31,819 nucleotides of DNA from Rhodospirillales bacterium. GTDB lineage: Bacteria > Pseudomonadota > Alphaproteobacteria > UBA828. Shown one piece after another: positions 7,918 to 24,775 of this stretch (position 1 is the first letter of the stretch; every line of letters starts with the position of its first letter). Where the stretch lies: NCBI GenBank assembly GCA_026712885.1, contig JAPOPO010000196.1:1-31819 (forward strand). Reading direction: 5' to 3'. Below the pieces are notes generated by a model. It worked only from the letters and a program-made list of their open reading frames with translations, was not told where the DNA came from and made no database searches. Made by a program: the position numbers and the translations under genes.

Positions 7918-8077
7918 GGTATCGAATTCCGGATCCTCCGGAGCTGAAGCTGCTGCAACGAGGTATCGATTTTCGGCGCCGGCTGCCGTCCAGGACGGCG
8001 AGATCGGTATCTGTTCGCAGTATCGGCCGGCCTATTGTCGTGGCGATCCCGGCGACGGGCGAGGCCCGGCGGTATCG
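7918..8077 (+). repeat. 160-bp direct repeat, copy 1 (copy 2 at 24604-24763)
   Basis: Ungapped hand alignment, 21 mismatches in 160 nt (about 87%); GGTATC at 7918, 7962, 8006 and 8071. Confidence 0.95.
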
Positions 8078-8099
8078 ATCGGCCCGCAGTCGGGTCGAC

Positions 8100-8315
8100 T
8101 CATCGATGCACCCACCGCGAAATGTCATCCGCGAGCGAAAAGGCGGCGCGACGGGCGCGAAAAATGTCGTCGACGCCGCTGAGGGCGTAACGTTCGGCCA
8201 GTGCCGCCGCGGCATCGGCCAGCTCCGTCCTGAGCTCGTCTTCGGACTTCACCCGGGGCTGGCAATAGCACTGAATGAGGCCGGAGAGGCGGCATCTGCA
8301 AGGCGACGCGCTCAC
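8100..8315 (-). CDS. Hypothetical 71-aa protein, last gene of early operon
   Basis: GTG overlaps DUF1643 stop (GTGA); MSASPCRCRLSGLIQCYCQPRVKSEDELRTELA. Confidence 0.55.
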   Translation of the reverse strand: MSASPCRCRLSGLIQCYCQPRVKSEDELRTELADAAAALAERYALSGVDDIFRARRAAFSLADDISRWVHR

Positions 8316-8875
8316 GGCAATTCTTTCCTGAGGCCCTCGATCGACCGCGGCACGAGGTCGTAGGACAGGTACAACGGATGCGCCGGCGAGCCGTTGAAAT
8401 TCAGGCGGAACGCATCGGCGCTGCCCGCCTCGAACAGGTGCCACAACAGGTGTTCGTCCGCGTTGAGCATCCGCGGCACGAGCGGGTGGACGCCCCAGCC
8501 CAGCACCAGGTACCGCGGGTTGTTGTCGACAACAACCCCGATGGTGGTCTCGTTGCGCTCGCCGGGGCCGAACACCTGGCCCGGGTCCTCGAACGGATCC
8601 AGGGTCAACAGGTTGCCGGGGTGCGTCGCGATCCGCGCGAACGCATTGACGACTTCCAGGCGCATGCAGCCCAGGCGCCGGGCGAAACCGACCAGCTTGC
8701 GCACGGTCGGATCGTCCTCATCGGCATCGGCGCTGGAGGGGTTCAGTCCGGCGAACGCCAGCGTGCCGGAGCCCTCGCCGAAGTTCCTGCCCCACTCGCG
8801 CCACAGCCGGTACCGGAAACGCCCGCACCCGCTGATCGAAGCGCCCTGGTCGAGGTATTTCAGGGCCGAGCTCAT
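8312..8875 (-). CDS. DUF1643 family protein
   Basis: A.ISGCGRFRYRLWREW, GLNPSSAD...DDPTVRKL.GFA, VVNAFA..ATHP, LGWG, G.PAHPLYL. Confidence 0.88.
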   Translation of the reverse strand: MSSALKYLDQGASISGCGRFRYRLWREWGRNFGEGSGTLAFAGLNPSSADADEDDPTVRKLVGFARRLGCMRLEVVNAFARIATHPGNLLTLDPFEDPGQVFGPGERNETTIGVVVDNNPRYLVLGWGVHPLVPRMLNADEHLLWHLFEAGSADAFRLNFNGSPAHPLYLSYDLVPRSIEGLRKELP

Positions 8876-9702
8876 GAGCCGCTCTCCCGGACCCTGCGGC
8901 CGCGCTCGTATTCCAGGATCGCGAGCCGGAGCCGCGCCGGTTCGATCCCGGCGGGTCCCTTCTGCGGGACATTGTTGCCGTTATTCAGCAGGGCCAGCAC
9001 GCCCTTGGGCACGCACATCAGGTTATCTATCTCGTTGTTCAGGGGATCGCCGTCCTCGTGAACGATGGCGTGGCCGGGCGGGATCCCGCCCTTATCCCGC
9101 TCCCACACCCAGCGGGCCTTGATGGTCCAATGGGAATTGAACCCGGTGCCGTTCTTCCTGATTGACTCGTAAGGCGACGGGCCGGGCACCTTGATCTGCA
9201 CGGCGCCTTTGCAGAACCGCTCCGAATACATGGGCCGGATGTTGCCGGGCCGGTGCCCGGGCTTGAACCACGTCTTTTCGCACCCCGGAGGATGCCAGCC
9301 CTTTCGGCCCTTGTTCGCGGGCGTATGGCCCTTCTGGAAGCGGACCAGGTTCCTCTCCCGCCTCACCCCGAGGCGGCGCGCCTGGCCCAGCATCATCGAC
9401 TTGGTCAGGCGCCGCCCGAACCGTTCCTCGAACAGGTCCGCCACCTGGCCGTAGGGCGTGTCCGGGATGGTTTCTCGCAGAAACGAAAGTTCCTCGCCGG
9501 TGTACGGGGACGGCGGGGTCTTCACCCCGGCGTTGGCGAGCACCCCGGGGAAATGGTTCTTCTGCGCGGCTCTCAGCTGCGCGCCGGTGATGGACGTGCC
9601 GAACTCGGAGTTGAACAGCCGGACGGTCTCTTCCACCGTGTGCCTCGGGTACTCGATGACCAGCCACACGAGGCGCTCCGGGTTCATCCACCTACCGGCC
9701 AT
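8872..9702 (-). CDS. HNH endonuclease family protein with N-terminal helical repeats and NUMOD-like motifs
   Basis: FQKGHTPANKG, WFKPGHRPGN, RWVWE...G.IPPGHAIVHEDGDPLNNEIDNL. Confidence 0.85.
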   Translation of the reverse strand: MAGRWMNPERLVWLVIEYPRHTVEETVRLFNSEFGTSITGAQLRAAQKNHFPGVLANAGVKTPPSPYTGEELSFLRETIPDTPYGQVADLFEERFGRRLTKSMMLGQARRLGVRRERNLVRFQKGHTPANKGRKGWHPPGCEKTWFKPGHRPGNIRPMYSERFCKGAVQIKVPGPSPYESIRKNGTGFNSHWTIKARWVWERDKGGIPPGHAIVHEDGDPLNNEIDNLMCVPKGVLALLNNGNNVPQKGPAGIEPARLRLAILEYERGRRVRESGS

Positions 9703-9934
9703 CGTCGCCCGTGAGCATTCTCGGGATGCTGACCGGACCCCGGGATTGGTCGATCTGAAGTTTTTTCGCCTCCAGTACGTTGCGCGAGTTTTCGATGATG
9801 GACTTCGCGACGGCGCTCACGGCCTTCGATCTTTCGATTTCCGACTTCAGATCATCGCCTTCCAGCGAATCGTCGCGCAGCGCCTCCACCTGGGCCATCA
9901 GGTGATTGTGCAGGTCGGTCAGGGTGTTTTTCAT
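9692..9934 (-). CDS. Conserved phage protein commonly adjacent to HNH genes
   Basis: MKNTLTDLHNHLMAQVEALRDDSL.GDDL..EIERSKAVS.VAK.II.N. Confidence 0.8.
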   Translation of the reverse strand: MKNTLTDLHNHLMAQVEALRDDSLEGDDLKSEIERSKAVSAVAKSIIENSRNVLEAKKLQIDQSRGPVSIPRMLTGDDGR

Positions 9935-10356
9935 GGTCTTTTCTCCGGGTTGTTCCGTTCGGTCAGCGACTCGATCCGCAGGGAGGCGCTGTCGGAGCGC
10001 TCGGCGGCCCGGCGCCGCTCGGCGCGCTCCACCAGCATCTCCACGTACGAGACGACCGCCAGCCTGTCGGCCTCGTCGAGCCGGCTCGCGCGCAGGCCAA
10101 GCGGCTCGCACGCCGCGGTGCGCCCCAGCAGCCAGTCGGCGCTGACGTCGAGCACGTCGCAGAACAGTCGCAGCGTCCTCGCCCGGGGCATCGACCTGGC
10201 CTTGAAGTAATGGTCGATTGAGCTCGATCCGGACGCGCGGTTCAGCTGTGCGGCGTCGTGGTAGCGCCGGCAGAATTCCTGGCGGGTCCATCCCCGCGCG
10301 GCGATCGCGGCCCGCAGCCGGCGGGCGAACCGGTCGTGCTCGCGCGAGGCGCTCAT
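9931..10356 (-). CDS. XRE-family helix-turn-helix protein
   Basis: FARRLRAAIAARGWTRQEF...SIDHYFKARSMPRARTLRLFCDVLDVSADWLLG. Confidence 0.85.
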   Translation of the reverse strand: MSASREHDRFARRLRAAIAARGWTRQEFCRRYHDAAQLNRASGSSSIDHYFKARSMPRARTLRLFCDVLDVSADWLLGRTAACEPLGLRASRLDEADRLAVVSYVEMLVERAERRRAAERSDSASLRIESLTERNNPEKRP

Positions 10357-10631
10357 CGGCCTGCCTCGCCCAGCAGCTCCCGGATCTGCCGATCGCATCC
10401 GTCGCGCCGCCGGTGCGCCTCGGCCACGTCGGCCAGGGCGCGTTCGGCGTTGAGCGCTCGCTCGCGCCAGCTCTGGACCTCGATCACGAGCCGCGGGTAG
10501 TCCCGCACCGCGGTCCAGACGGCCTTGGTGCGGGCCATGCCGGGGAACGACGCTTCGAGCCGATCGAGCCATCTGGCGTTCTCCGCGCGCAGGATCCTCA
10601 GGGTGAAGGCTTTCGGCTTGTCGATGCTCAT
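10353..10631 (-). CDS. Hypothetical 92-aa coiled-coil protein
   Basis: 4-nt overlaps with both neighbours. Confidence 0.6.
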   Translation of the reverse strand: MSIDKPKAFTLRILRAENARWLDRLEASFPGMARTKAVWTAVRDYPRLVIEVQSWRERALNAERALADVAEAHRRRDGCDRQIRELLGEAGR

Positions 10632-10945
10632 GGGTTCGTCTCCAGGACGCGGCGCACGTGCCGCGCCGACAGGCGGTGCTTGCGGGCGAGCCAGCGGATG
10701 GACCGCCCGTCGCGCCGCTGGCGGCGGATGCGCTCGTCGCGCTCCCAGCGGTCGATGACGGCGGCGGCCGCCTCCCGCGAGGGCAGCCGGACACGGCCGC
10801 GCGCGTGCAATGCCTCGCACACCGCCAGCGTGAGCGAGGCGGCGACGTCCTCGTCGGAGCGCGCCTTGAGGTGGCGGATCGACGGCTCGGCCGCGACCCA
10901 CCGCAGCATGGCGCGCAGCAGCGCGGTCAGCGCCCGTTCGTTCAT
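10628..10945 (-). CDS. Mor/C-family transcription activator
   Basis: GRVRLPS...RDERIRRQRRDGRSIRWLARKHRLSARHVRRVL C-terminal HTH; position after GemA-like gene. Confidence 0.78.
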   Translation of the reverse strand: MNERALTALLRAMLRWVAAEPSIRHLKARSDEDVAASLTLAVCEALHARGRVRLPSREAAAAVIDRWERDERIRRQRRDGRSIRWLARKHRLSARHVRRVLETNP

Positions 10946-11391
10946 GCCTGTTTCCTCGCGAGCATGGCCTTCAGACCCTCGATGACGCGCCAGGCGTCGG
11001 CGGAGGTGGCGATGCGGGCGCTGCCGTAGCGCCGTTCCAGCCACACCAGGTACCGCCTTTCGTCGGGGAAGATCTGCGGCCACAGATCGTCTATGAAGCG
11101 CCGCTGCTTCGCGGTTGCCAGGCGGGTCACGCCCTTCGGCAGACGCGGCGGCGGGGCGTCGGTGTCCGCCGGCGCCGGGTCGCGCGGCGTCTGGCGCGAG
11201 ACGCCCTTCGGCGCCGGGCCGCCGAACAGGTGGCGGATCAGGTCGTGGGCCTGGCGCCGGTCCAGGTCCTTGCAGGTGCGCGCGCCGTAGCGGGCAACGA
11301 GCACCTCGCGGTAGGCGTCGTCGTCGAGGCCGGCCTTGCGGGCGGCCACGTGCACCGTGCGGATCTGCGCACTGGAGATGGGCTTGCTCAT
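10942..11391 (-). CDS. gemA: GemA/Mu gp16-like protein (DUF1018)
   Basis: AQIRTVHVAARKAGLDDDAYREVL..RYG.RTCKDL; C-terminal A.RVIEGLKAM. Confidence 0.88.
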   Translation of the reverse strand: MSKPISSAQIRTVHVAARKAGLDDDAYREVLVARYGARTCKDLDRRQAHDLIRHLFGGPAPKGVSRQTPRDPAPADTDAPPPRLPKGVTRLATAKQRRFIDDLWPQIFPDERRYLVWLERRYGSARIATSADAWRVIEGLKAMLARKQA

Positions 11392-12257
11392 GCCGCCGCC
11401 GTCCGGCGCTCGCGGCGCTGTCTGAGCGCCTCGGCCACGGCGGCCTCCGGCGGGGCCCCGGACGGCGCCGCGGGCGCGGCCGGGGCGTCGCCGAGCGCCA
11501 GCCGGACGTCGGCGGCGGAAATCCGGATCGCGCCCTCGCGAGCCCGGCTCGCCGCCAGCGAGCGGTCCAGGAGATCGGCCAGATCCAGCCAGTTCCTCGA
11601 TCGGGGATCGGCGACGAGCCGCTCAAGCGCGGCGTCGCCGATCAGCGGCGCATCCGCCGAGGGCCGCATCGCCCGCGACGCGGCCTCGCGGGCCTCGGCG
11701 CCGGAGAGACCGGCCAGGACCACCCGGTCGGCGCGACGGCCCACCTCGGGGATGGCCGCCGCGCGGTCGGACTGGCCCACGAGCACGATCGCCAGCAGCG
11801 GCGCGCGGCCCATCCAGGCCAGCTCCAGCAACCGCTTCAGCCCCACCGCGGTGCGGTAATGCAGCCGGTGCGCGTCGTCGACCGCGAGCGCGACGGGGCG
11901 CCGCCGCGAGGCCGCGCCCAGGATGCGGCGCACCTGCCGGGAGCGGGCCTCGCCGCTGCGCCGGGGGCGTTCCTCGGAGAGGTCCGCGACGATCGCCGCG
12001 GCGATGTCGCCCAGGTGAAGGCGGTCGCGGTCCAGCCGCACCGGCTCCACCACGGCGCAGTCCAGGCCCCGCAGCGCCTCGCGCACCGCCACGCTCTTGC
12101 CCGATCCGCGGGGCCCGACGACGGACACGAGCGCGCGGGCGGTCACCGCGGCGTCCACGACCGATACGACGCGGCGCAGGTCGCCCGTGACCGTGGGCGG
12201 GCCGGGCCAGGGTTGCGGCGCCAGCCCCGCCGAGGCCCTTCTCAGCAGGCGGCTCAC
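11388..12257 (-). CDS. Transposition ATPase (MuB functional analogue, ExeA-like AAA)
   Basis: Walker A GPRGSGKS, Walker B LAVDDAH, LVGQ motif; directly follows transposase. Confidence 0.9.
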   Translation of the reverse strand: MSRLLRRASAGLAPQPWPGPPTVTGDLRRVVSVVDAAVTARALVSVVGPRGSGKSVAVREALRGLDCAVVEPVRLDRDRLHLGDIAAAIVADLSEERPRRSGEARSRQVRRILGAASRRRPVALAVDDAHRLHYRTAVGLKRLLELAWMGRAPLLAIVLVGQSDRAAAIPEVGRRADRVVLAGLSGAEAREAASRAMRPSADAPLIGDAALERLVADPRSRNWLDLADLLDRSLAASRAREGAIRISAADVRLALGDAPAAPAAPSGAPPEAAVAEALRQRRERRTAAA

Positions 12258-13876
12258 GACGCCTCCCGCACGGCGGCGAGCTCTCGGGCGAGCGACCGGA
12301 CCGCGTCGCGGTCCAGGCCCGCGTCGCGGATCTCCGCCCCGACCATCCCGAGCAGCCCCGGGGACAACGGCCAGGGATACAGTTCGGCGAACTCGCCGAG
12401 CGCCTCCTCCAGCGAGGCGTACGCGCCGCCGACGCGCAGCGGGTTGTCCAGAGGCGCCCCGGGCACCGCCTTTCGCATCAGCCGCGGGGGGCCGGCCTCG
12501 GCGGCGGGGGCGGGGGCGTAGACGTCGGCGCGGCCGTCCGGGGCGCCGGACTCGAGCAGCTTCTCAAGCGGGGACGCCGGTACCGCGCGCACGTGGCCGT
12601 AGGGCCTGATCTGGAGCGGGCGGGCCTCGCGCCGCTCGGGGGGCTTGGAGCCTTCCAGTTCCACCGCGATGCGCCCGGCCGCCGCGGCGGCGCCGACGAG
12701 CGGGCGGCGGCAGATCACCCAGCAGTCGTGCCAGTCGGGCACCTCGTACTGGACCGAATCCCAGCTGAGCACCCCGGCGTTGTTCACGCGCCGTCTCGCG
12801 CGCTGCGCGGCGGCCGCGAGCGCGTCGGGCGGCATCGCCACCAGCGGGCGCTCCGCCGGGCGGCGCGAGCCCAGCGCCGCCCAGGCGTCCGCGCGGGGCA
12901 CGGGGCGCCCGCCCACCGGCGTCCTGGACGGGCGCCGCGCGTTCTCCCGCGCGTCGTATTCGCGCAGGCGCGAGTTGAGGTCCGACAGCAGGATCGTCTC
13001 CCCGCGCAGGCCCAACGCGGTCTCGAAGCGGCGCCAGCGCGAGCGGTGCGAGCGCTCCACCCCGCCCATCCGGGTTTTCGCGTAGGGCAGCCCAACGACC
13101 ACTTCGATGTCCAGGGCCTCCAGCAGCTCCGCCGCGGCGGCGCCCTTGAACAACGGCCCCTGATCGGTCCACAGGTGCTCCGGCACGCCGTGGCCCGGCA
13201 GCCGGGGATCCTCCGAGGGCTGGCAGGCGCCGATCAAAAAGTCCAGCGCGTCGGCGGAGTTCTCGCCCTGCGCCACGTAGGCGCGGGCCTCCACGTACCC
13301 CGTGCACAGGTCCCAGATCGAGTAATAGACCACGCGCTCGCGCCCCGGCGGCAACGGCTTGTTCTTGTACCCGCCCGCGGAGATCCTGCGGCGGTGGAAC
13401 TTCAGCAACCAGTCGCCGTCGGCGCCGTCGCGCTCCAGCACCGCCATGTGGGCGCTGTGGCTGCCGTCGATCTGCACGGCCTGCCAGGGGTAGTCGGCGT
13501 GGAGGCGCTGGGTGCGCTTGCGGGACGGCGCGAGCCCCAGCTCGCGGCGCACGCGGTAGGCGGTGGACAACGGCATGGCGAGCGCCTGCGGCGGCAGGTC
13601 CCCGGCCGCAACCGCCGCCTCGATGGCGTCCTCCAGCACCGCGCCGGTGCGCGCCGCCCAGCGCACCGCGACCTGAACCCACTCGCGGTAATCGGGGATC
13701 GCGGCGCGGCCGGACCTCGACGCCACGGCGCGGTGCCCGCGGGTGAGCCGGTAGACGGTGCCAGCGGACACGCCGTAGCGCTTCGCGAGTTCGGCGATGA
13801 CGACGGCCGTGTGGCCGTGGGGGGCGGCGTCGATCTCCGCGGCCATGCGCCGCACGGTGGCGGGGTCCAGGCTCAC
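12254..13876 (-). CDS. DDE transposase (MuA analogue, B3/BcepMu type)
   Basis: N-terminal HTH (LAKRYGVSAGTVYR); QIDGS, WTDQGP and GGVERSH give an intact D-D-E triad; no frameshift seen. Confidence 0.92.
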   Translation of the reverse strand: MSLDPATVRRMAAEIDAAPHGHTAVVIAELAKRYGVSAGTVYRLTRGHRAVASRSGRAAIPDYREWVQVAVRWAARTGAVLEDAIEAAVAAGDLPPQALAMPLSTAYRVRRELGLAPSRKRTQRLHADYPWQAVQIDGSHSAHMAVLERDGADGDWLLKFHRRRISAGGYKNKPLPPGRERVVYYSIWDLCTGYVEARAYVAQGENSADALDFLIGACQPSEDPRLPGHGVPEHLWTDQGPLFKGAAAAELLEALDIEVVVGLPYAKTRMGGVERSHRSRWRRFETALGLRGETILLSDLNSRLREYDARENARRPSRTPVGGRPVPRADAWAALGSRRPAERPLVAMPPDALAAAAQRARRRVNNAGVLSWDSVQYEVPDWHDCWVICRRPLVGAAAAAGRIAVELEGSKPPERREARPLQIRPYGHVRAVPASPLEKLLESGAPDGRADVYAPAPAAEAGPPRLMRKAVPGAPLDNPLRVGGAYASLEEALGEFAELYPWPLSPGLLGMVGAEIRDAGLDRDAVRSLARELAAVREAS

Positions 13877-14538
13877 CGGCGCATCGCCAGGTCAAGCAGC
13901 GAGTCCAGGCGCACCGACACGTTGTCGCCCCACTCGCAGATGCGGTCCGCGGCGGCGATGGGCCGATCGCCCGCCGCCGATAGCTGTTCCTCCAGTTGCG
14001 CCAGCGCCGCGTTCACCTGATGAGCGAGCGGGCGCCACTGGATGACGGCGCGATCGGACTCCAGGCGCGGCGCGGCGGCCGGGGCCGACCCGGGGACGGA
14101 CTGTTCGGTCATCCTCCGGATCGCCCGGGCGCGTGCCCTGGGCGGGCGGGTCATCACCTCGGCCAGCAGCTTGTCTTCGGGGATCGAGCCCAGCGCGTCG
14201 GCGGCCCGGTCCGCGTCGCCGACCGTGCGAACGAATTCCTCGATCAGCCCCAACCGCCCCTCGGCCTCCGGGGCGGAGAGCGTGCGCAGCGAGCGCGCCT
14301 CGCGCGCGCCCTCCCAGGCCAGCGCGAGCGCGTCGGCCCGAACCGGTTCCAGGGGCGTGTGCGCGGCGATGAACGCGGCGCGGCGCTCGCCGTCTGGGAT
14401 CGCCTCGCGGATCTCGTGGCAGGCCCGCATGATGCCGCTCTCCAGCATCTCCAGCACCTTCTGCCCGGTGCGGTGCAGCGCGCCGATGCGGTGCGCCGCC
14501 TCCAGCGCCGCGGCCGGTACCGGGGCGGAGCCGGTCAT
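13873..14538 (-). CDS. DUF3102-like early protein
   Basis: Position just upstream of transposase as in BcepMu-like phages; weak sequence resemblance only. Confidence 0.5.
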   Translation of the reverse strand: MTGSAPVPAAALEAAHRIGALHRTGQKVLEMLESGIMRACHEIREAIPDGERRAAFIAAHTPLEPVRADALALAWEGAREARSLRTLSAPEAEGRLGLIEEFVRTVGDADRAADALGSIPEDKLLAEVMTRPPRARARAIRRMTEQSVPGSAPAAAPRLESDRAVIQWRPLAHQVNAALAQLEEQLSAAGDRPIAAADRICEWGDNVSVRLDSLLDLAMRR

Positions 14539-18330: not shown

Positions 18331-18569
18331 CCGCGGCACCCGGCGTAGACGGCGATCGCCTCGCGCTGCGCGGTCGCCAGGGTGCGGTGGTTGCTCAGCA
18401 GATCTTTCCCCCTGCACAGCGACCAGCGATGGTGGGCGAACCGTTCGATGCGCCATTCCCAGACGCCCTGCGTCTGGCGGCCGGCCACGTATGTGCCGCG
18501 CGACAGGCGCGTCCAGTTCAGCGGCACGCCGTCCAGTATCGATGCGCAATGCGGGCAGCGCAGGCTCAC
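18327..18569 (-). CDS. Hypothetical 80-aa protein with N-terminal CPHC
   Basis: 4-nt overlaps; Trp-rich beta-like body. Confidence 0.6.
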   Translation of the reverse strand: MSLRCPHCASILDGVPLNWTRLSRGTYVAGRQTQGVWEWRIERFAHHRWSLCRGKDLLSNHRTLATAQREAIAVYAGCRG

Positions 18570-18814
18570 GGCGACTCCGCCACAAAGCGCTCCGCCATGT
18601 AGACGCGCAGCGCCCGCTCAAGGTCCGGGACCTCCGCTCGCCAGCGCCCGTCGGGACCGAGCACCTCGAAGCCGCCCTCGAAATCCCCGCGCACCCGGTA
18701 CGTAACGCCGGCGAGGGATACCCCCGTCGCGTTCAGGGTCGCCGTCCCCTCGACGGGCCCGAACAGCGGGTCGACGATGTCCTGGCCGGTCATCCCGACA
18801 ACCTTCAGTTTCAT
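18566..18814 (-). CDS. Hypothetical 82-aa protein
   Basis: ATGA overlap with the first early gene. Confidence 0.65.
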   Translation of the reverse strand: MKLKVVGMTGQDIVDPLFGPVEGTATLNATGVSLAGVTYRVRGDFEGGFEVLGPDGRWRAEVPDLERALRVYMAERFVAESP

Positions 18815-19383
18815 GCAGTCCCTCCCAACGCATTTCCGACGCGGCCCATCACCGCGCCGAGCGCGGCGGCCTGGCGGGCGAAGCGGGCGTCGCCCGCGGC
18901 GATCAGCCCGTCGTAGGCGACGCGCCGCGACGAGCCGCGCTCCGGCGCCGCGAAATCGCCGCGACCGTGACCGTCCGCCCAGTGCAGGATCACCTGGCGG
19001 ACGTCGCCGGGACGCACGCCGTGGAAATCGGCGAAGGCGGGGATGTCGGCGATGCGCCCGCCATCGTCGAGGCGGTGCGCGATCCGGCGCGCCTCGTCCG
19101 CCGCCGCCTGGCGCTCCGCCGCCGCGAGCGCCGCCGGGGAATCCGGGGCGGGGGAGGGGCGGGGGATGTCGTGGGGCCAGGGGAGATCGTCGGGCCAGAG
19201 GCCGGAGAGCCTTCGCATCACCGTCTCAGCGCGTGAGATCGTGAGGCCGGAGCCGGACCGCAATCGCGAGTAGAAGTTACCTGCGCCGCTCACTGACTTG
19301 CCCACCGTCGCGGGCGCAAGTCCACTGTGATCGGCGAGCACCTTGATGAGCTGGCAGATCGATGAGATGGCGTTGGGAAACAT
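18811..19383 (-). CDS. Cro/Ner-like early regulator with extra C-terminal domain
   Basis: LADHSGLAPATVGKSVSGAGNFYSRLRSGSGLTISRAE.V...LSGLWPDDLPWPHDIPRP; first gene of early operon, divergent from repressor. Start chosen at ATG 19383, 7 nt after a -10 box. Confidence 0.65.
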   Translation of the reverse strand: MFPNAISSICQLIKVLADHSGLAPATVGKSVSGAGNFYSRLRSGSGLTISRAETVMRRLSGLWPDDLPWPHDIPRPSPAPDSPAALAAAERQAAADEARRIAHRLDDGGRIADIPAFADFHGVRPGDVRQVILHWADGHGRGDFAAPERGSSRRVAYDGLIAAGDARFARQAAALGAVMGRVGNALGGTA

Positions 19384-19390
19384 GTGTCCC

Positions 19391-19419
19391 AGTATAAGGT
19401 TATATATATCCCCTCGCAA
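19391..19419 (-). promoter_or_regulatory. Early promoter (sigma70-type)
   Basis: On the minus strand: TTGCGA (19419-19414), 17 nt, TATACT (19396-19391), 7 nt, ATG (19383). Confidence 0.8.
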
Positions 19420-19440
19420 TAGATTTGTCCCACACTCGCG

Positions 19441-19465
19441 AGTCAGGGATAGTAATATCCCGACT
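19441..19465. promoter_or_regulatory. Operator-like inverted repeat over the repressor promoter/start
   Basis: AGTC(A)GGGATA-GTAA-TATCCCGACT; contains TAATAT 7 nt before the repressor ATG. Confidence 0.6.
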
Positions 19466-19870
19466 ATGGTTGTATCGAGCACTCTTCGACGCGCACTCGC
19501 AGATCACACTGCGGCCACATCTGTTCGGGCCGTGGCCGCTGCGTCGGGGGTGCCGAGACATCGCATCCGTAATGTATTGGCAGGCCGTCAGCCAGGGATA
19601 GATACCGCCGCCGAGATATGCGACGCCCTGGGTATCACCCTCACCCTCGGTCCGCGTCGCGATTCCTCCCGCGTCACGCCGTTGCGTCCTATTGATTCTC
19701 TTGCAAAACAGGGGCTTGCGCCGGTTGCCGATCGGGAGTTGGCGGAGTTGCTGGCGGCGATCTGTCGGCGTTGGGAGTCGTTGCCGCCGTCGGAGCGGGC
19801 GTACCTGGCCGCGGACATCTGGGCGGCCGGCGGGGCCGGGCTCAGCGCTCAGCGCTCAGGCAGGTCGTAG
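19466..19870 (+). CDS. Prophage repressor (XRE HTH); C-terminus possibly frameshifted
   Basis: SVRAVAAASGVPRHRIRNVLAGRQPGIDTAAEICDALGI HTH; divergent from early operon across an AT-rich gap. Confidence 0.8.
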   Translation: MVVSSTLRRALADHTAATSVRAVAAASGVPRHRIRNVLAGRQPGIDTAAEICDALGITLTLGPRRDSSRVTPLRPIDSLAKQGLAPVADRELAELLAAICRRWESLPPSERAYLAADIWAAGGAGLSAQRSGRS

Positions 19871-19945
19871 CGTGGCTCGGGTGGCGCGTGGTGGACGGCG
19901 GGGCGGCGCCGGAGGTCGATCCGTAGGGGGGTCCGGCGGGGGGCT

Positions 19946-19981
19946 GCCGCTGTTACTTAGCTCGCTCTAAGTAACAGCGGC
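19946..19981. repeat. Perfect 15-bp inverted repeat (hairpin or palindromic binding site)
   Basis: GCCGCTGTTACTTAG-ctcgct-CTAAGTAACAGCGGC. Confidence 0.9.
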
Positions 19982-20051
19982 GGCTCAATGCCGGGGACCG
20001 ATTCGAGGTGCGGCAAGGGCCAAATCCAGCGGGAGAAAGGAGGTGATGCCC

Positions 20052-20105
20052 ATGACGAGAATCCCCCACGTCGGAGATGCTATTCGTAGCAAGTCGGTGA
20101 TGTAA
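20052..20105 (+). CDS. Putative 17-aa peptide MTRIPHVGDAIRSKSVM
   Basis: Preceded by AAGGAGGTGAT (20037-20047); followed by a hairpin. Confidence 0.35.
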   Translation: MTRIPHVGDAIRSKSVM

Positions 20106-20107
20106 GG

Positions 20108-20135
20108 GGGCCCGCCTGAATCTTCGGGCGGGCCC
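20108..20135. terminator. GC-rich hairpin between convergent units, possible terminator
   Basis: GGGCCCGCCTGAA-TC-TTCGGGCGGGCCC (one G-U pair); no clear U-tract. Confidence 0.5.
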
Positions 20136-20187
20136 GTAACTCAACTTATAACGTCCCGTTGGCCCTTGCCGCCCGCTCAGTCTAGCA

Positions 20188-20532
20188 TCACCTCGGCCGC
20201 TGCGAAGTCCTGATCTCCACCTCGGTCCGCCACACCGCGACGTCGGGCGGTACCGCTCCGAGTGAGCGGATTTCGGCGGCCAGGTATTCGCAGTGATCGT
20301 GAATGACGGTGCTGTCGGCGGGCACACCCCTAGAGCTGTTGCGCTCTGCCGGCGCCATCGTGCAGCCCCACATGACGTATTCCGGAATGATGAAATGATC
20401 GGCCAGCCACAACCGGTCGGTTGCCGTTTCGCGGTTGTGGGCCGCGATCATCCCGCCTATCACGGGTGTGCGCTCCATCGTTGTGCATGACGTCAGGCAC
20501 AACAACGCGAACAGCGCGGCCACGGGCCTCAT
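20188..20532 (-). CDS. Lipoprotein of unknown function
   Basis: MRPVAALFALLCLTSC signal with lipobox-like LTSC; ATGA overlap with upstream gene. Confidence 0.7.
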   Translation of the reverse strand: MRPVAALFALLCLTSCTTMERTPVIGGMIAAHNRETATDRLWLADHFIIPEYVMWGCTMAPAERNSSRGVPADSTVIHDHCEYLAAEIRSLGAVPPDVAVWRTEVEIRTSQRPR

Positions 20533-21365
20533 TCGCCCGCCGCCTCGGGTTCGGATTCAGCCTCGGCCTCGGCCTTCGCCTCGGCGGCCAGCCTCGTGCG
20601 TCGTTCCCAGGCCCACTCGTAGGCGTGGAGTTTCGTCAGGCCCTTGAGCACGGCGGCGACCTGGGCGCTGATCTGGCGGTAGTCGGTGGCGCGGTCGGTT
20701 TGCCAGACGGCGATCACCGTATCCACGGCGTTCTTGACCAACAAGTGAATGTGCGCCTCGTGCGGGCGCTGCTCCAGCCAGCCGATGTGCCGCGTTCTGG
20801 CTGTGGCCAGAGCCGCATCGATCACGGCATCGCGGAACTGCGCAAGCGCGGAGTGCGCGGCGACCACGCGAGCGCGCACGGTGGCGTTCGTGGCCTCGTT
20901 GACCTTGACCTGGGCGGCGTCGATGGCGGAAGCGAATCGACCGACGATGGCCGCCCTGAGCGCATCCTCTTCGTCGAGCATCGCGTCCTCATCGGACGGC
21001 GGCAGGAACAGCCATGCCGTGCCAGCGGCGTTGCGCTCTGCTTTCATAGCGCCCTCGACGTCGGATGGCAGAATGCGAGAGTCAACGGGGTACTTGATTT
21101 CCATCGACTGCTCGTGGGGTTGCTCGCCGTCGTCAGGTGCGGACCACGAGAAATACGCGTACCTTCCATCGGCCAGGTCGGCGGTGTGCCGCACTTGACA
21201 GTGGATAACCTCGAAGCGATGCCCGTTGAACGCTGCGACCTGCATTCGGTCGCCCTGCGCGGTGCCGGGCAGGGCGAGCAACGCTGCTGCTTGCTCCGTC
21301 GTGGTTCCGGCTGGCACTTCGGCCTTGCCGCCATAATCTACGATGAACGTTGTTTTCGGGTTCAT
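20529..21365 (-). CDS. Hypothetical 278-aa protein (possible fibre chaperone/accessory)
   Basis: Long ORF with normal composition directly after the fibre-like gene; lower GC. Confidence 0.7.
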   Translation of the reverse strand: MNPKTTFIVDYGGKAEVPAGTTTEQAAALLALPGTAQGDRMQVAAFNGHRFEVIHCQVRHTADLADGRYAYFSWSAPDDGEQPHEQSMEIKYPVDSRILPSDVEGAMKAERNAAGTAWLFLPPSDEDAMLDEEDALRAAIVGRFASAIDAAQVKVNEATNATVRARVVAAHSALAQFRDAVIDAALATARTRHIGWLEQRPHEAHIHLLVKNAVDTVIAVWQTDRATDYRQISAQVAAVLKGLTKLHAYEWAWERRTRLAAEAKAEAEAESEPEAAGE

Positions 21366-21371
21366 GTCTGT

Positions 21372-23198
21372 CTACCTTGCGTTGATCTGAGTGAGCGACC
21401 ATGTACCGGCGTCATTTCCGCCGACCTTGTAGACGGAAGCGATGAGCTGAGTGCCAGCGTCGTTCAGTCGAAGCGTGACGCCCGCTCTGTTGGGGATGTT
21501 TTTTGGTGTGTTGGTCAGGATCGGGAATCGCCTGTCTACGGCGCTCATCATCACACGAGAAATCCGCTTTCCGAACTGCTCTGCCGCCACATCGTTCTCA
21601 GTGATCCAGACCTCGAACTCGTCGTCCGTGGCCCTGATTGCGTAGGGACTGGCGCCGGCGAGTGCGCGCCATTTGCCGATCCCCGTGACGGGCAACACGA
21701 TCTGGATTGTTTCCAGCAGAGTGCCCGAGCTGTCTTCTATCCGCAGCGATGGGTTTCCGCCAGCCAGTCCGTCGGCCGCATTCTGCACGAGAGTGCGGGA
21801 CTGTACCGCTGTAAACGCGAGAGAGGCAACCGCTTCGTCGGTCGCGTTGACGTACCCTCCGTTTCGCCCGCTTACGTTGAGACGCATCCGCGTGCCGGCC
21901 GGCCACGTGCCATCCACTCGATGCAGGACGACTCTCAAGGTAAACCGGCCCTGGTCATGTGGAATCGTTGGCGGGACAACGGAGATGCTGCCGGGCCATC
22001 GAGCCGCCGTATTGGCGTCCGCGGCGGCCTGAGCCGTTGCCGCGGCGGCCCGCGCCGGCGCGTCGGCTCCGCCTCCGCTGCCTTCCGCGAGTGCGACAAG
22101 GTCGGCTGTAATTTCAGCCTGCTGAACGTCGCTCGCATTGAGCAGACGGACAATAACTGTCTCGACGGCGTTGTCGGCAAGCCCGTCCAGCGCAGTCGCC
22201 ATGGCCGTCGTGACCAGCACCTGAATAGGGATCGAAGTCGAGTGCTGATTGACCACTACCGCAATGGTCTGCGTGACTCCGCCAATGGTCACTGACGCCT
22301 TCGTTACATCGGTATATAGGCCCGGAGCAACAAAGAGATTCAGTTCGAACTTATCGGGGAGAGCGCCCTTGTTGATCTGCGCCGGAGAGACGACGAGCGC
22401 GTGTGGAGTGCCCGGCTCTACCGGCTGTCGCAGGATGTTGCCGACGCGCGTCCAGACCGCGGTGCGGAACATCAGCGCCATGATGATGTCGCCCGCCTCG
22501 GCTGAGGTAAGCGCCGTCTCCGGATCGGAAATGTCCACGAACGAAATGCCGGCGGCCACGTCCGCGCGGAGAATGATGACGTCGCTGCCCAGGTTTGCTT
22601 CGTCAATCCGGGGCAGCGTCGCGGCAACCGAGATGTGCGCCGACCGGAACGCCGCGCGGAACGCCTTGCGCTTGGCCGCGTCGGAGACATCCATTTTGGC
22701 GGCCGACAGACTGCCGTCCGCGATTTCGCCCGGCGCCGCGGCGGCCGCCGTATCGGTCACCTTGACCCACGTCGCCGCGCCCGCGAATTGCATTGTCACG
22801 GCGGTACCGGGCGGAATCTCCAGCGTCCGCCCGGCGCCCTCTATCCGGTCGGTGATGCCCACGTCGAACGTGAGCGCCGCCGTCGCGGAGTTCAGGAGCC
22901 GCACCCAGAATCCCCCGCCGACAGAGCCGGACTTGGTGAACGTGCGGGGCGTCGCGCCGGTCAGCCGGATGGTATTGCCGCGATCGGCGAGGGTGATGTT
23001 GCGGTCAGCGGCCGTCGAAACAATGGCCGCGCGGCGTCGGTAGCCGCTCAGCGCGTCGCCGATCTGCGTAGCCACCTCATCGGCGTCGACATCGTCGGCC
23101 TCCGCGGCGTTGATGAGCGCCTGCACCTGCGCCGCATTCAGGCCGGAGCCCGGAGTCGCCGGGGCGCCGCCTCCAGATCCTGGAAGGTAGAACGGCAC
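21372..23198 (-). CDS. 608-aa putative fibre/adhesin-like virion protein
   Basis: Gly/Ala/Thr/Val-rich beta-type modules, ITLADRGNTIRLTG...GFWVRLLN fibre-like domain; lies in operon with gpW. Confidence 0.65.
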   Translation of the reverse strand: MPFYLPGSGGGAPATPGSGLNAAQVQALINAAEADDVDADEVATQIGDALSGYRRRAAIVSTAADRNITLADRGNTIRLTGATPRTFTKSGSVGGGFWVRLLNSATAALTFDVGITDRIEGAGRTLEIPPGTAVTMQFAGAATWVKVTDTAAAAAPGEIADGSLSAAKMDVSDAAKRKAFRAAFRSAHISVAATLPRIDEANLGSDVIILRADVAAGISFVDISDPETALTSAEAGDIIMALMFRTAVWTRVGNILRQPVEPGTPHALVVSPAQINKGALPDKFELNLFVAPGLYTDVTKASVTIGGVTQTIAVVVNQHSTSIPIQVLVTTAMATALDGLADNAVETVIVRLLNASDVQQAEITADLVALAEGSGGGADAPARAAAATAQAAADANTAARWPGSISVVPPTIPHDQGRFTLRVVLHRVDGTWPAGTRMRLNVSGRNGGYVNATDEAVASLAFTAVQSRTLVQNAADGLAGGNPSLRIEDSSGTLLETIQIVLPVTGIGKWRALAGASPYAIRATDDEFEVWITENDVAAEQFGKRISRVMMSAVDRRFPILTNTPKNIPNRAGVTLRLNDAGTQLIASVYKVGGNDAGTWSLTQINAR

Positions 23199-23202
23199 GG
23201 GG

Positions 23203-23529
23203 TTACGCCAGGGCGGCGAGGTGGGCGATCGCCTCGGCGCCGACGGCGGTGAGGCGCACGGCGGTGATCGCGGCCGGCAGCTCCGCGCCGCTGTCTCCGG
23301 CCAGCGCGGTGGAGGCGCCGATCTGGACGTCGATCCAGGAGGCGTTTCCGGCCTCCACGTCGGCGATGCTGCGGCACGAGGTCGACAGCACGGCGCTGCC
23401 CCCGGCGCCGGGGTGCACCTGCACGGCGATGGAGGAGGCGGCGATGTCCAGCACGACGATGTCGCTCTCTCCGGCGGCGGCGGTCAGCTCGGCATAGAAT
23501 CTGTGGCGGTCGCCGTCTGTAATGGCCAT
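23203..23529 (-). CDS. Hypothetical 108-aa beta-sandwich-like protein
   Basis: Clean ORF between W and the fibre-like gene; SIAVQVHPGAGGSA...NASWID...ITAVRLTA. Confidence 0.7.
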   Translation of the reverse strand: MAITDGDRHRFYAELTAAAGESDIVVLDIAASSIAVQVHPGAGGSAVLSTSCRSIADVEAGNASWIDVQIGASTALAGDSGAELPAAITAVRLTAVGAEAIAHLAALA

Positions 23530-23550
23530 TGCGATGTCCTGTCGGGCCGG

Positions 23551-23901
23551 CTATCCGGCGTTCGGGCTGACGACGATCTCGTCGACGCGCACGGCGTCGC
23601 CGGTCTCTGGATCCACCGCGTCGATGTCCATGACGGCTCGGCCCGGCGCCACCTCCCGCAGGCTCACCGCGGTGACGCGCACGCGCGGTTCCCATCGGTC
23701 CAGGGCCTCGGCGGTGGACGCCCGCAGCCGCCCGTGCAAGCCCCTGTCCATGGGTCCGTCGAGCAGCTCGGGCAGGTCCGATCCGTAGTCCGGGCGCATG
23801 ATGCGGGTGCCCTTGGGCGTGAGCAGGATGTCGGCGATGGACTGGCGCAGGTGCTCGGCGCCGCCGAGCGGGGCGCCGGTCGCGGCGTCCATGCCGTTCA
23901 C
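23551..23901 (-). CDS. Baseplate wedge protein gpW/gp25
   Basis: GMDAATG..L...EHLRQSIADILLTPKGTRIMRPDYGS.LPELLD.P...AEALDRWEPRVRV. Confidence 0.95.
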   Translation of the reverse strand: MNGMDAATGAPLGGAEHLRQSIADILLTPKGTRIMRPDYGSDLPELLDGPMDRGLHGRLRASTAEALDRWEPRVRVTAVSLREVAPGRAVMDIDAVDPETGDAVRVDEIVVSPNAG

Positions 23902-24719
23902 CGGGAGTACTCCCCGTCGCCCAACCAGGCGGCGATGCGCTCGGCCTGGCGCCGGCGGCCCGGGTACTTCGGGTCGGTGGCGAACGTCGAGTCCATGACT
24001 TCGGCCGCCGCGCTGTCCCAGTCGCCGGCGCGGATCGCCTCCAGCGTCGCGTCGAACCCCGCGCAGGCGGCGCTGAAGCACAGCAGGTACACCGCGTCGC
24101 GGCGGGCGGGCTCGATGGCATCCAGGCGGGCGCGCCCGAGCAGCCGCGCGGCTTCGACTTCGGCCCGTGCGCGGTCCTGGAGCGCCAGGGCATACACCCC
24201 GTCGCGGTCCAGGAGGTGGCCGCAGCCGATATGCCAACCCGTGCCGTCGTCGTAGGGGGTGAGGTTCTCGCCCTCCTGATCGCAGATGGCCGCCATCAAC
24301 GGATCGGCGGCCGGCGGGTCCCCGGCCGGCCGATCCTTTATGCCTTGACGGGGGTTCCCATCGGACCCGGACCCCTCCAACTCGGTATCCTGGGTGGCCG
24401 TGCCCGGCGGGTGCACGGTGACATGGATGTTGACGTCGCGGCCGGCCTCGACGCCGGCGACGTATTCGGCGTCGGCCGTGTAGCTGTCGGTGGAGCTGTC
24501 GGTGGAGCTGTCGGCGGCGCCGCCGCCCAGGCCCGCGGCGTCGGCCGCCCCGCGCAGGGCCCCGAGCTGTGCGCAGCCGCTGAGCGCGGCCAGCGCGAGC
24601 AGCGGTATCGAATTCCGGAGACTCCGGAGCTGAATCGGCTGCCGGGAGGTATCGATTTTAGGCGCCGGCGCCGGGCCGGGCCCGCGAGATCGGTATCTGT
24701 TCGCTGTATCGGGCGGCAT
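23898..24719 (-). CDS. Lipoprotein-signal-bearing T4-type (GH24-like) lysozyme/endolysin
   Basis: LLALAALSG-C lipobox (Cys codon 24573-24575), long linker, then DQEGENLTPYDDGTGWHIGCGHLL and AIRAGDWDSAAAEVMDS. Start uncertain. Confidence 0.8.
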   Translation of the reverse strand: MPPDTANRYRSRGPGPAPAPKIDTSRQPIQLRSLRNSIPLLALAALSGCAQLGALRGAADAAGLGGGAADSSTDSSTDSYTADAEYVAGVEAGRDVNIHVTVHPPGTATQDTELEGSGSDGNPRQGIKDRPAGDPPAADPLMAAICDQEGENLTPYDDGTGWHIGCGHLLDRDGVYALALQDRARAEVEAARLLGRARLDAIEPARRDAVYLLCFSAACAGFDATLEAIRAGDWDSAAAEVMDSTFATDPKYPGRRRQAERIAAWLGDGEYSR

Positions 24720-24763
24720 ATTGTGGTGGCGATCCCGGCGACGGGTGAGGCCAGGCGGTATCG
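24604..24763 (+). repeat. 160-bp direct repeat, copy 2 (overlaps 5' end of the lysozyme gene)
   Basis: See copy 1; GGTATC at 24604, 24648, 24692 and 24757. Confidence 0.95.
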
Positions 24764-24775
24764 ACCGCCCGGAAA

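Follow-up and report, generated by a model that had tools for sequence, protein, structure and literature searches.

The cassettes described here are carried by a single transposable phage of roughly 38–39 kb with Mu-type early genes and a P2-type tail. Two of them, E1 and E2, lie within the window (the whole 31,819-nucleotide stretch of DNA that was analyzed), and their starts are 16,686 bp apart. All genes flanking the two cassettes are on the minus strand as judged from GC3 phase, so their original description as upstream of late gene blocks holds when the DNA is read on that strand. The relevant features of the window are as follows.

5436–6380, minus strand: major head protein gene, after the decoration gene (profile match)
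6416–6763, minus strand: decoration gene, next after the head protease gene (profile match; phrog_673/PF09956 and phrog_1005 are cited for the decoration and head genes)
6763–7854, minus strand: head maturation protease gene, the Mu I counterpart, first after E1 (phrog_976, E = 1.6e-83)
7913–8091, no strand: cassette E1 (copy 1), non-coding (alignment, codon-position test, GC)
7918–7923, plus strand: E1 box a, GGTATCGA (motif scan)
7928–7942, no strand: TCCGGA-N3-TCCGGA palindrome/hairpin, E1 unit a (sequence comparison)
7962–7967, plus strand: E1 box b, 44 bp past box a (motif scan)
7985–7999, no strand: 15-bp perfect palindrome, E1 unit b (alignment and folding)
8006–8011, plus strand: E1 box c, 44 bp past box b (motif scan)
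8048–8059, no strand: CCCG-GCGA-CGGG hairpin, E1 unit c (motif and folding)
8071–8076, plus strand: E1 box d, 65 bp past box c (motif scan)
8312–8875, minus strand: DUF1643 gene, last recognized gene before E1 (profile match)
8872–9702, minus strand: HNH endonuclease gene, upstream of the DUF1643 gene (profile match)
10628–11044, minus strand: candidate Mor-like activator gene (phrog_532, E = 6.6e-6; Pfam Mor 18.4 bits, below cut-off)
23898–24719, minus strand: lipoprotein lysozyme-like gene, after E2 (phrog_7, E = 2.3e-5; homologues P0002 and P0003)
24599–24777, no strand: cassette E2 (copy 2) (alignment with E1)
24604–24609, plus strand: E2 box a (read on the minus strand as Ser-Ile-Pro just before the lipoprotein signal core)
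24648–24653, plus strand: E2 box b (motif scan)
24692–24697, plus strand: E2 box c (motif scan)
24757–24762, plus strand: E2 box d (motif scan)
24776–25525, minus strand: 249-aa gene of unassigned family, ending where E2 begins (ORF and profile searches)

The predicted ungapped repeat between positions 7918–8077 and 24604–24763 was confirmed (139/160 identical, 86.9%), and the alignment can be extended without gaps to 7913–8091 against 24599–24777 (151/179, 84%). By comparison, 20,000 random 160-mer pairs drawn from the window had a mean identity of 29.5% (S.D. 4.3) and a maximum of 46.9%. The motifs ascribed to the repeat were also recovered in both copies, namely GGTATC at offsets 0, 44, 88, and 153, TCCGGA-N3-TCCGGA (7928–7942 and 24614–24628), and CCCG-GCGA-CGGG (8048–8059 and 24734–24745). 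The window contains 17 GGTATC sites against 6.9 expected. The stretch in which E1 and E2 have diverged most is still palindromic in both copies: at the place in E2 unit b (24672–24684) matching the E1 palindrome there is a different palindrome despite changes at 7 of 14 bases. Looping out of the intervening DNA by recombination between E1 and E2, as had been proposed, is possible in principle, yet no identical run exceeds 21 bp.

Mismatches between E1 and E2 are distributed 12/9/7 over the three codon positions with no positional bias, showing that the cassettes are not coding sequence. E1 has a GC content of 64%, as against 71% for the window, and lies between a possible 48-codon ORF and the DUF1643 gene on one side and the head protease gene on the other, ending 58 nt from the GTG start codon (7854) of the latter. 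Its GGTATC boxes are on the plus strand and thus antisense to the flanking genes. E2 directly follows the stop codon (24776) of the 249-aa gene, one base on, and runs over about 38 codons at the 5' end of the lysozyme ORF as called (ATG at 24719). The true start of the lysozyme gene is uncertain because one relative begins directly with the signal peptide.

Copies, relatives, and spread of the cassettes

The repeat had been taken to exist in two copies. However, the public contig L091 links contig C477 to the window's left end through an overlap of 141 bp, and C477 carries two further, diverged copies belonging to the same phage.

C477 1989–2146, no strand: cassette E3, before the tape-measure gene, inverted
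C477 5563–5656, no strand: cassette E4, before the baseplate hub D gene (Mu P counterpart)

E1 and E2 are the most alike of the four cassettes, and all that the four have in common is the GGTATC boxes, the 44/44/64–65-bp phasing, and palindromic spacers. The boxes are spaced 44/44/65 in E1 and 44/44/64 in E3, which over the first 94 bp are 63% identical with all four boxes intact; E4 retains the 44/44 phasing with two boxes flipped. An E3 orthologue in an unrelated MAG (G201) also retains the boxes and phasing. E1, E2, and the G201 orthologue keep the unit-a TCCGGA-N3-TCCGGA element, and E3 has a weakened form of it. All eight GGTATC pairs at 44 bp in the 2.76-Mb MAG fall inside the four cassettes, and there are none among 200 related genomes. 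Each cassette starts 0–20 bp from the stop codon of the preceding gene and heads a block, beginning with the head protease (E1), lysozyme (E2), tape-measure (E3), or hub D (E4) gene, at a distance of 0 to about 60 nt from the start codon.

Searches of IMG/VR identified 16 distinct arrays of at least three co-oriented boxes at 44 bp, with 2–5 arrays per genome. The exact 44-bp spacing was set by the search pattern and so is independent evidence only within genomes; every box cluster on contigs A and C shows it. The carriers form a Vibrio-type group and a lambda-terminase group, are marine-type, and have 43–49% GC, and the arrays on two mapped contigs occupy gene gaps. A blastp comparison at 1e-3 gave no real match for proteins common to the three phage groups; the design recurs in unrelated phages. 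Within arrays, co-orientation of the boxes is far above chance, with 16 co-oriented IMG/VR arrays against two genuinely mixed ones and, in the present phage, the mixed E4. E3 and the second array of contig C are inverted relative to the other arrays of their own genomes. No cassette match was found among sequenced isolate phages, and we found no earlier description of the design.

Paralogous pairs (A1/A4, B1/B4, H1/H4, and E1/E2 of the window) are 84–87% identical, whereas orthologous cassettes in different genomes are 66–68% identical. In the group with 4–5 cassettes per genome, one pair stands at ~85%, like E1/E2. The closer resemblance of paralogues than of orthologues indicates concerted evolution.

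A neutral recent duplication without function would account only for the high identity of E1 and E2, and we consider it highly improbable. It is contradicted by the preserved phasing of E3 and E4 (boxes intact in E3, two flipped in E4), by the orthologue in another genome, by the same design in unrelated phages, and by the variable stretch that is palindromic in both copies.

The cassette could instead be chiefly a recombination or mobility element, a repeat that spreads by duplication to the gaps between genes and provides a junction at which phages exchange modules; E2 would be a recent copy of an E1-like cassette placed before the lysozyme gene. Several observations point this way. Homology between G201 and the phage is limited to E3 and the first ~100 tape-measure codons, its start coinciding exactly with box a. 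Only two relatives of the lysozyme are on record (69 and 48% identity), and in both the gene coordinates show overlap with the upstream gene and no room for a cassette; the window version has cassette-derived codons before the lipoprotein signal at which one of these relatives directly starts. No array precedes distantly related protease genes, E4 is bounded by 10–11-bp true inverted repeats as read by eye, the cassettes border blocks whose order departs from that of Mu, and paralogues are more alike than orthologues. However, neither E1 nor E2 shows a visible target-site duplication, no cassette-specific recombinase or transposase was found, and, unlike the REP, ERIC, and MITE families, the cassettes have no copies at other places in the host MAG or in 200 relatives. 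Boxes and phasing that stay strictly conserved across long divergence further indicate a function beyond spreading, and we regard mobility as an unlikely main role. The same evidence bears on the suggestion that the repeat is a scar of genome rearrangement: the cassettes do lie at module junctions, with a homology break at a cassette edge, but four copies with conserved boxes indicate a selected element rather than a scar.

Folding of the GGTATC strand

GGUAUC can pair with itself (four Watson-Crick and two G·U pairs), so that the outer boxes would close a long hairpin. The cassette might therefore act as a structured single strand of the GGTATC sense, with the inner boxes as the next helix or apex and the palindromic spacers as side hairpins. 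Such a strand could function as a small non-coding RNA, as an element of RNA processing or stability, or as a single-stranded DNA signal such as a priming site. Fold z-scores for the GGTATC strand were −2.1 (E1), −2.5 (E2), −2.0 (E3), and −0.7 (G201), compared with +0.5, −1.5, −1.1, and +0.3 for the opposite strand. For twelve AT-rich arrays the mean z was −4.0 against −2.2, the GGTATC strand being lower in 10, although this strand asymmetry follows in part automatically from the box sequence. Minimum free energy folds share a plan in which the outer boxes are paired and the middle box is apical, and in the consensus fold of the four high-GC copies box a pairs with d and box b with c. Compensatory two-sided changes occur in at least one sequence at 11 of the 39 pairs of this fold; since the box helices are invariant, covariation contributes only a small term (−0.88 kcal/mol). 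Retention of a palindrome at the most diverged E1/E2 stretch also fits, and pairing of co-oriented boxes on one strand only, via wobble, would explain why the boxes are not inverted.

Against this proposal, the better-folding strand is antisense to all flanking genes at E1, E2, contig A arrays 1–3, and contig C array 1, and is the sense strand at E3, C2, and L023. An antisense strand excludes a cis-acting role in mRNA for most copies and would need a separate promoter, and none was found at E1 or E2. Moreover, E4 has flipped boxes with its phasing preserved, one orthologue comparison read by eye points to the opposite strand, and Rfam gave no match at gathering or relaxed thresholds. Overall a single-strand role seems to us possible but rather unlikely. 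An RNA leader or antitermination element, as considered in the original prediction, is unlikely on the mRNA, given the antisense folding strand at E1 and E2 and the variable orientation.

Possible control of late transcription and comparison with known systems

In Mu, the late promoters Plys, PI, PP, and Pmom require the activator C, and among them are promoters positioned before lys, the head protease/scaffold gene I, and the baseplate hub gene P. The cassettes likewise precede counterparts of Mu lys, I, and P, are several related non-coding sites inside a long co-directional late gene array, and share their genome with an early Mor/C-type gene that comes after GemA, as in Mu. They might thus be late promoters dependent on the Mor/C-like protein (10628–11044). 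No Shine-Dalgarno sequence was found before the genes following E1, E2, and E4, which could fit transcripts starting near the start codon. However, neither E1 nor E2 has a −10/−35-like site within it or next to it, E3 is inverted with respect to the gene it precedes, E4 is mixed, and anything from 0 to about 60 nt separates a cassette from the start codon. Five other cassette-bearing phage records (32–59% complete) have no Pfam Mor match at E ≤ 1, and in the present phage the Mor assignment is itself weak (18.4 bits, below cut-off). Known Mor/C sites are single dyads of about 20 bp, far smaller than a 160–180-bp cassette with four boxes. Mu late promoters as a whole are single, ~60 bp in length, with one activator dyad and fixed orientation, whereas the cassettes, at 100–180 bp, contain 3–4 direct boxes spaced 44 bp apart, can face either way, lack a recognizable promoter, and are also found in records with no Mor gene detected. 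The positions recall Plys, PI, and PP and fit a late control region, but the absence of a promoter-like site, the inversion of E3, and the partial records in which no Mor gene was detected do not support a link to this specific protein, and we consider such promoters very doubtful.

We tentatively favor, as plausible rather than probable, a DNA-level element: a phased protein-binding array that punctuates late transcription. The cassette filling the gap between two late gene blocks, with its three or four invariant co-oriented GGTATC boxes and GC-rich palindromes between them, would be bound by an oligomer of a sequence-specific protein, phage-encoded or host. A spacing of 44 bp is about four helix turns and would place the boxes on roughly one face, and the palindromes may be secondary sites or extrudable hairpins. 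The bound complex would control the passage of RNA polymerase from each late block to the one that follows, an occupied cassette acting as a roadblock or insulator and giving way late in infection to passage or re-initiation. The 87% identity of E1 and E2 would then reflect duplication or gene conversion rather than a requirement for 160 identical bases. Array orientation is not tied to transcription, which is easier to reconcile with recognition at the DNA level than with a cis-acting mRNA element. However, the dyad symmetry of the spacers about the array center and the folding of the arrays, far better than that of shuffled sequences (mean z −4.0), are explained more directly by a structured single strand than by a phased operator.

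No binding protein was found for the cassettes, nor any protein family common to the three phage groups; the binder would accordingly have to be either a small protein that has diverged strongly or a factor of the host. No host factor known to us has GGTATC as its site. The repressor-early switch region (19400–19480) carries another palindrome and lacks a GGTATC array, which makes the prophage repressor no obvious candidate.

Several known systems resemble the cassettes in part. In cluster A mycobacteriophages, the stoperators (L5 gp71 sites), which are proposed to stop RNA polymerase during elongation, are also short asymmetric sites repeated in intergenic gaps all over the genome. They are, however, 13 bp long, occur singly, match the early operator exactly, and point in the direction of transcription, whereas the cassettes are phased arrays of variable orientation with no box at the repressor-early switch. 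The sopC locus of plasmid F, with 43-bp units, similarly has one binding site per ~43–44-bp unit, and dispersed centromere or KorB-type operators (N15, RK2) are several genome-scattered sites that also affect transcription. Unlike the cassettes, sopC repeats its whole unit nearly identically and lies beside sopAB; no ParB-type gene was found in the window phage, and a transposable prophage needs no partition system.

The T4-type PeSLs (promoter-early stem-loop) and similar terminator or hairpin cassettes are repeated non-coding hairpin units between genes at gene-shuffling borders. A PeSL is an early promoter plus one stem-loop of about 50 nt in one orientation, with no phased box array. REP/BIME, ERIC, and Correia-type repeats share with the cassettes imperfect palindromes of 100–150 bp in transcribed intergenic gaps, either orientation, and many copies prone to concerted evolution. 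Those are families of host chromosomes with tens to hundreds of copies, whereas the cassettes are confined to the phage and have direct, not inverted, boxes with a central copy of the terminal box. Finally, the HK022 put RNAs (putL and putR) are two similar structured non-coding copies before two operons of one phage, as are E1 and E2, but put works within the nascent sense transcript, immediately after a promoter, whereas the better-folding strand of E1 and E2 is antisense and the cassette is present in four copies.

Cassette copies and their genomic setting

The ungapped direct repeat of the original prediction is real. Window positions 7918-8077 and 24604-24763 are identical at 139 of 160 bases, and the alignment extends without gaps to 151 identities in 179 positions over the two copies that we term E1 (7913-8091) and E2 (24599-24777). 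Random pairs of 160-mers drawn from the window had a mean identity of 29.5% and never exceeded 47% in 20,000 trials. The repeat has a GC content of 64-66% versus 71% for the window. As had been predicted, both copies contain GGTATC at offsets 0, 44, 88 and 153, hereafter boxes a to d, together with a TCCGGA-N3-TCCGGA element and CCCG-GCGA-CGGG.

The repeat is, however, not the two-copy feature originally described. A search of the same MAG gave a third copy (E3) on a second contig, C477, and a scan for box pairs gave a fourth (E4) on that contig. Positions 1-141 of the window and 1-141 of C477 form a 141-bp overlap within the sheath gene, and the two contigs are joined in the public metagenome contig MKWU01008769.1 (L091). 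This join shows that C477 continues the minus strand of the window, giving a phage of about 39 kb spread over two MAG contigs. C477 carries a P2-type tail block (tube FII, chaperones E and E', tape measure T, U and hub D) that ends near position 6680 and is followed by a methyltransferase gene. All eight of the GGTATC/GATACC pairs spaced exactly 44 bp apart across the MAG lie inside the four cassettes. Neither the 641 MAG contigs nor 200 relatives of the host yielded a further copy. An assembly artefact was rejected, since the longest identical run between E1 and E2 is 21 bp and the join between window and C477 is reproduced by an independent public contig.

Cassettes and neighboring genes of the window phage
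Window 6763-7854, minus strand: head maturation protease gene (phrog_976, E=1.6e-83), downstream of E1 and followed by the decoration and major head protein genes
Window 7913-8091: E1; on its upstream side (minus-strand reading) an HNH endonuclease gene, a DUF1643 gene and a possible 48-codon ORF
Window 19343-19870, plus strand: XRE repressor gene, facing the early operon
Window 20188-20532: 114-aa lipoprotein gene, preceding the two hairpins at the end of the lysozyme-baseplate operon
Window 24599-24777: E2, beginning one base past the stop codon of a 249-aa gene of no recognized family and extending into the called start of a lipoprotein lysozyme-like gene, after which comes the gp25/W baseplate gene
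Right part of the window, plus strand: terminase, portal and neck genes
C477 1989-2146: E3, directly after the E' stop codon (TGA, 1986-1988) and before T
C477 5563-5656: E4, between U and D, the final box ending three bases ahead of the D ATG

All genes from position 1 to about 25,790 of the window are placed on the minus strand by GC3 phase. The early-type genes of the phage encode a MuA-like transposase, a MuB-like protein, GemA and a weakly Mor-like protein (10628-11044). Two strong GC-rich hairpins (19950-19985 and 20110-20137) separate the lysozyme-baseplate operon from the 3' end of the repressor gene and probably terminate transcription converging from the two sides. Shine-Dalgarno sequences are absent from the genes that follow E1, E2 and E4 (window 7854 and 24719; C477 5659) and present for the capsid, decoration, fibre, portal and tape-measure genes. 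The MAG also holds a second, distant head protease homologue (contig C113 4011-5072, 34% identity), and on this basis it probably contains a second prophage.

The four cassettes differ in orientation and sequence but keep their boxes. Within one co-directional gene array, E3 has the opposite orientation to E1 and E2 relative to transcription, and the boxes of E4 are mixed, with one in one orientation and two in the other and the 44-bp spacing retained. E1 and E3 are only 63% identical over their first 94 bp, but each has four intact boxes, spaced 44/44/65 in E1 and 44/44/64 in E3. The most diverged stretch between E1 and E2 likewise retains a palindrome in both copies. The 28 mismatches between E1 and E2 include every substitution type and are distributed 12/9/7 over the codon positions. 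They are thus neither confined to the adenines of one copy, as in the template and variable repeats of a diversity-generating retroelement, nor biased by codon position as in a protein-coding repeat, and both candidates were rejected. A CRISPR-like or type III antitoxin-like tandem array was also rejected, as the units are dissimilar outside the boxes.

The called lysozyme ORF begins at an ATG inside E2 (region 24604-24719), and box a encodes Ser-Ile-Pro within it. Only two relatives of this lysozyme are on record. In both, the gene coordinates overlap those of the upstream gene, and one relative starts directly at the lipoprotein signal peptide, which in the window is preceded by ∼38 cassette-derived codons. 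E2 thus has the appearance of an insertion. The TCCGGA-N3-TCCGGA palindrome codes for LRSLRNS, the n-region of the signal peptide. No canonical start codon is located in frame close to this region, so that the protein would have either a genuine long N-terminal extension or a non-canonical start (ATT). The cassette may have donated the 5' end of a gene, namely the signal-peptide region of the lysozyme.

Relatives of the cassette and arrays in other phages

No phased array was found near the protease homologues of the host family (≤38% identical), a protease-based locus search of IMG/VR gave no relative, and megablast of the phage against isolate phages returned only one unrelated 100-bp match. 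The high-GC cassette patterns retrieved from IMG/VR, GTDB genomes and JGI metagenomes only the window phage again (contigs L014 and L091) and one orthologue of E3 (L050), the remaining matches being plain tandem repeats of 11, 22 or 44 bp. This orthologue, in a complete MAG chromosome labelled Candidatus Rariloculaceae (G201), is 74% identical to E3 and has four boxes with 44/44/64 spacing. It is followed by a 210-bp insert and then by a tape-measure gene fragment, comprising the initial ∼100 codons and 86% identical in nucleotides. Homology to the phage starts exactly at box a, and no other part of the phage is present there.

This break in homology at the cassette edge and the insertion-like character of E2 both favor a role for the cassettes in recombination or mobility, a reading related to the rearrangement scar that was among the original proposals. 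As direct repeats, E1 and E2 could recombine to delete 16.7 kb including the early region, as had been foreseen. Efficient RecA-dependent exchange needs about 21 bp of identity or more, which is the longest run available here, and the deletion is expected to be rare. Unlike MITE, REP or ERIC elements, the cassettes have no visible flanking target-site duplication and no copies across the host genome. Recombination at the cassettes is probably real as a by-product, and we consider it improbable, ranking third among the readings, that it is their role.

In G201, one spacer of a CRISPR array of ∼59 repeats (C1 3445959-3446004) matches the major head protein gene (window 5564-5609) at 40 of 46 positions, including a few bases of repeat flank, which suggests that relatives of the window phage infect this lineage. 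The truncated tape-measure fragment ends (C1 about 3413320-3413350) at a solitary sequence resembling a type I-E CRISPR repeat, with a CCCCGC-N4-GCGGGG core; the large array, some 29 kb distant, has different repeats.

Arrays of the same design occur in other phages. The collection scans used exact patterns, and a three-box pattern with the 44-bp spacing fixed by the search gave 36 stretches in IMG/VR. About half were plain tandem repeats, and the rest comprised 16 distinct arrays on viral contigs of 43-49% GC, with two to five arrays per genome. One group, of Vibrio type, encodes a replication initiator, a ParB-like protein and a PAPS reductase, and its terminase has relatives in Vibrio phages; a second group has a terminase of the lambda gpA type. 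In the two contigs that were mapped (contigs A and C), all box clusters lie in gene gaps with 44-bp spacing. The spacers of these arrays share with the window the short palindromes CCWGG, TCCGGA, CTGCAG and CTCGAG, and strings such as TCCGGAGCTG and TCCGGATCC are common to them and E1. No real protein similarity among the three phage groups was detected by tblastn or blastp. The array is absent from a Vibrio phage with a related terminase, and two of the AT-rich arrays had no blastn match among 50,697 records of isolate phages.

Each Vibrio-type genome has one pair of arrays that are 84-87% identical (A1/A4, B1/B4 and H1/H4), whereas orthologous arrays in different genomes are 66-68% identical. 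On the same measure E1 and E2 are 84% identical, and their similarity is an instance of the same phenomenon. Since paralogues are more alike than orthologues, the likeness of E1 and E2 would reflect homogenization or recent duplication rather than a need for 160 fixed bases.

Folding and comparison with known elements

The arrays are considerably more stable in folding than dinucleotide shuffles. The GGTATC strand of the cassettes has z-scores relative to such shuffles of -2.1 (E1), -2.5 (E2), -2.0 (E3) and -0.7 (G201 orthologue), versus +0.5, -1.5, -1.1 and +0.3, respectively, for the opposite strand. Twelve AT-rich arrays had mean z-scores of -4.0 on the GGTATC strand and -2.2 on the other. 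GGUAUC is self-complementary via two G.U pairs, and the folds accordingly have a common plan in which the outer boxes pair together and the middle box caps a hairpin. The four-box high-GC fold joins box a to d and b to c. Being direct repeats, the boxes pair by wobble only; E4 is an exception, with true inverted repeats of 10-11 bp at its ends. The spacers have dyad symmetry about the array center, and co-oriented arrays outnumber genuine mixed ones in IMG/VR by 16 to 2. Eleven of 39 pairs have at least one sequence with pair-keeping changes on both sides; the main helices consist of the invariant boxes, and the covariation term is -0.88. The dyad symmetry and strand-biased folding point to a structured single strand as the active form, a reading that we rank second and consider unlikely.

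The better-folding strand at E1 and E2 is antisense to the downstream gene, in contrast to what is expected of a cis-acting RNA leader of the put or riboswitch type. The RNA leader or antitermination element that had been proposed is thus not borne out, as the sense strand folds worse than the GGTATC strand at both copies. Rfam gave no match at the gathering score, and only chance-level ones at E≤10.

The original prediction also offered a late control region dependent on a Mor/C-like protein, and its positional element stands. Like Mu-type late promoters, which are located before lys, I, P and mom, the cassettes lie directly upstream of late units. E1 stands ahead of the head protease gene, E2 ahead of the lysozyme-like gene, E3 ahead of the tape-measure gene and E4 ahead of the GPD hub gene, and counterparts of Mu lys, I and P are among these. 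The promoter itself is less well supported. No sigma-70 promoter or intrinsic terminator was found in E1 or E2, the cassettes are large, and they show no recognizable -10 element with an activator dyad in place of the -35 in fixed orientation toward the gene, E3 being inverted and E4 mixed. In addition, the window gene gives only a weak Mor-like match, and arrays occur in five other records (32-59% complete) with no match to Pfam Mor (PF08765). A Mor/C-dependent late promoter is accordingly very doubtful.

Other known classes fit no better. In L5-type stoperators orientation is tied to transcription, whereas E3 differs from E1 and E2 in this respect and contig C has arrays in both orientations. 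Furthermore, the repressor-controlled early promoter has no cassette box: the switch region between the repressor gene and early operon (19400-19480) has a GGGATA..TATCCC palindrome and no intergenic GGTATC box. An iteron origin or sopC-like centromere differs in that the cassette units are only 39-48% alike outside the boxes. A ParB-type binder was rejected, as contig A has a ParB-like gene adjoining one array but neither a ParB nor a Rep gene was found in the window phage. Repeated intergenic cassettes have been described in a handful of phage models, namely the late promoters of Mu, the stoperators of L5 and the PeSLs of T4, and in every case they are restricted to one lineage and one regulator. 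Literature searches found no published description of the present cassette.

Possible function of the arrays

An oligomeric protein that recognizes double-stranded DNA, rather than a cis-acting mRNA element, is favored by the invariant hexamer, the phasing maintained despite the flips in E4, the varied orientation and the confinement of the cassettes to gene gaps at block borders. Such a protein would recognize the phased boxes in the duplex. Tentatively, and at less than even odds, we rank first a DNA-level array that would punctuate the gene blocks.

A single design, comprising the hexamer, the 44-bp phasing and the palindrome vocabulary, is found in three phage groups with no detectable common protein, and its copies are homogenized within a genome. 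It is conceivable, although we hold it with reserve, that the cassettes are an undescribed and horizontally spread class of phage non-coding element, in which phased, co-oriented GGTATC boxes are set in a large imperfect palindrome. The active form would be either a strand-specific fold built on symmetric GGUAUC-GGUAUC wobble helices or a platform for one conserved factor. It would control late blocks in temperate phages that are not otherwise related and whose hosts range from 43% to 71% GC. If a common binder or fold exists, the cassette would be a portable module for late-block control and would mark where modules meet in mosaic phages. The Vibrio-type prophages (IMGVR_UViG_2700989121_000003 and 2684623128_000004) derive from genomes of isolates, so that culturable hosts are available for testing these proposals.

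Each of the three phage types has its array or arrays near one map end in the reverse orientation to the rest: E3 and part of E4 in the window phage, A4 in contig A, C2 in contig C. The site of the flip in contig A is the region of divergent transcription and replication, and that in the window phage is within a late gene array transcribed in one direction. A relationship of array polarity to replication or to genome ends is possible, and with three genomes, two of them partial, is only a lead. Separately, in one Vibrio-type phage (IMGVR_UViG_2700989121_000003, about 10610-10790) a 58-aa cysteine-rich, zinc-finger-like ORF begins 10 nt after one array, and its product is a candidate small regulator or binder.
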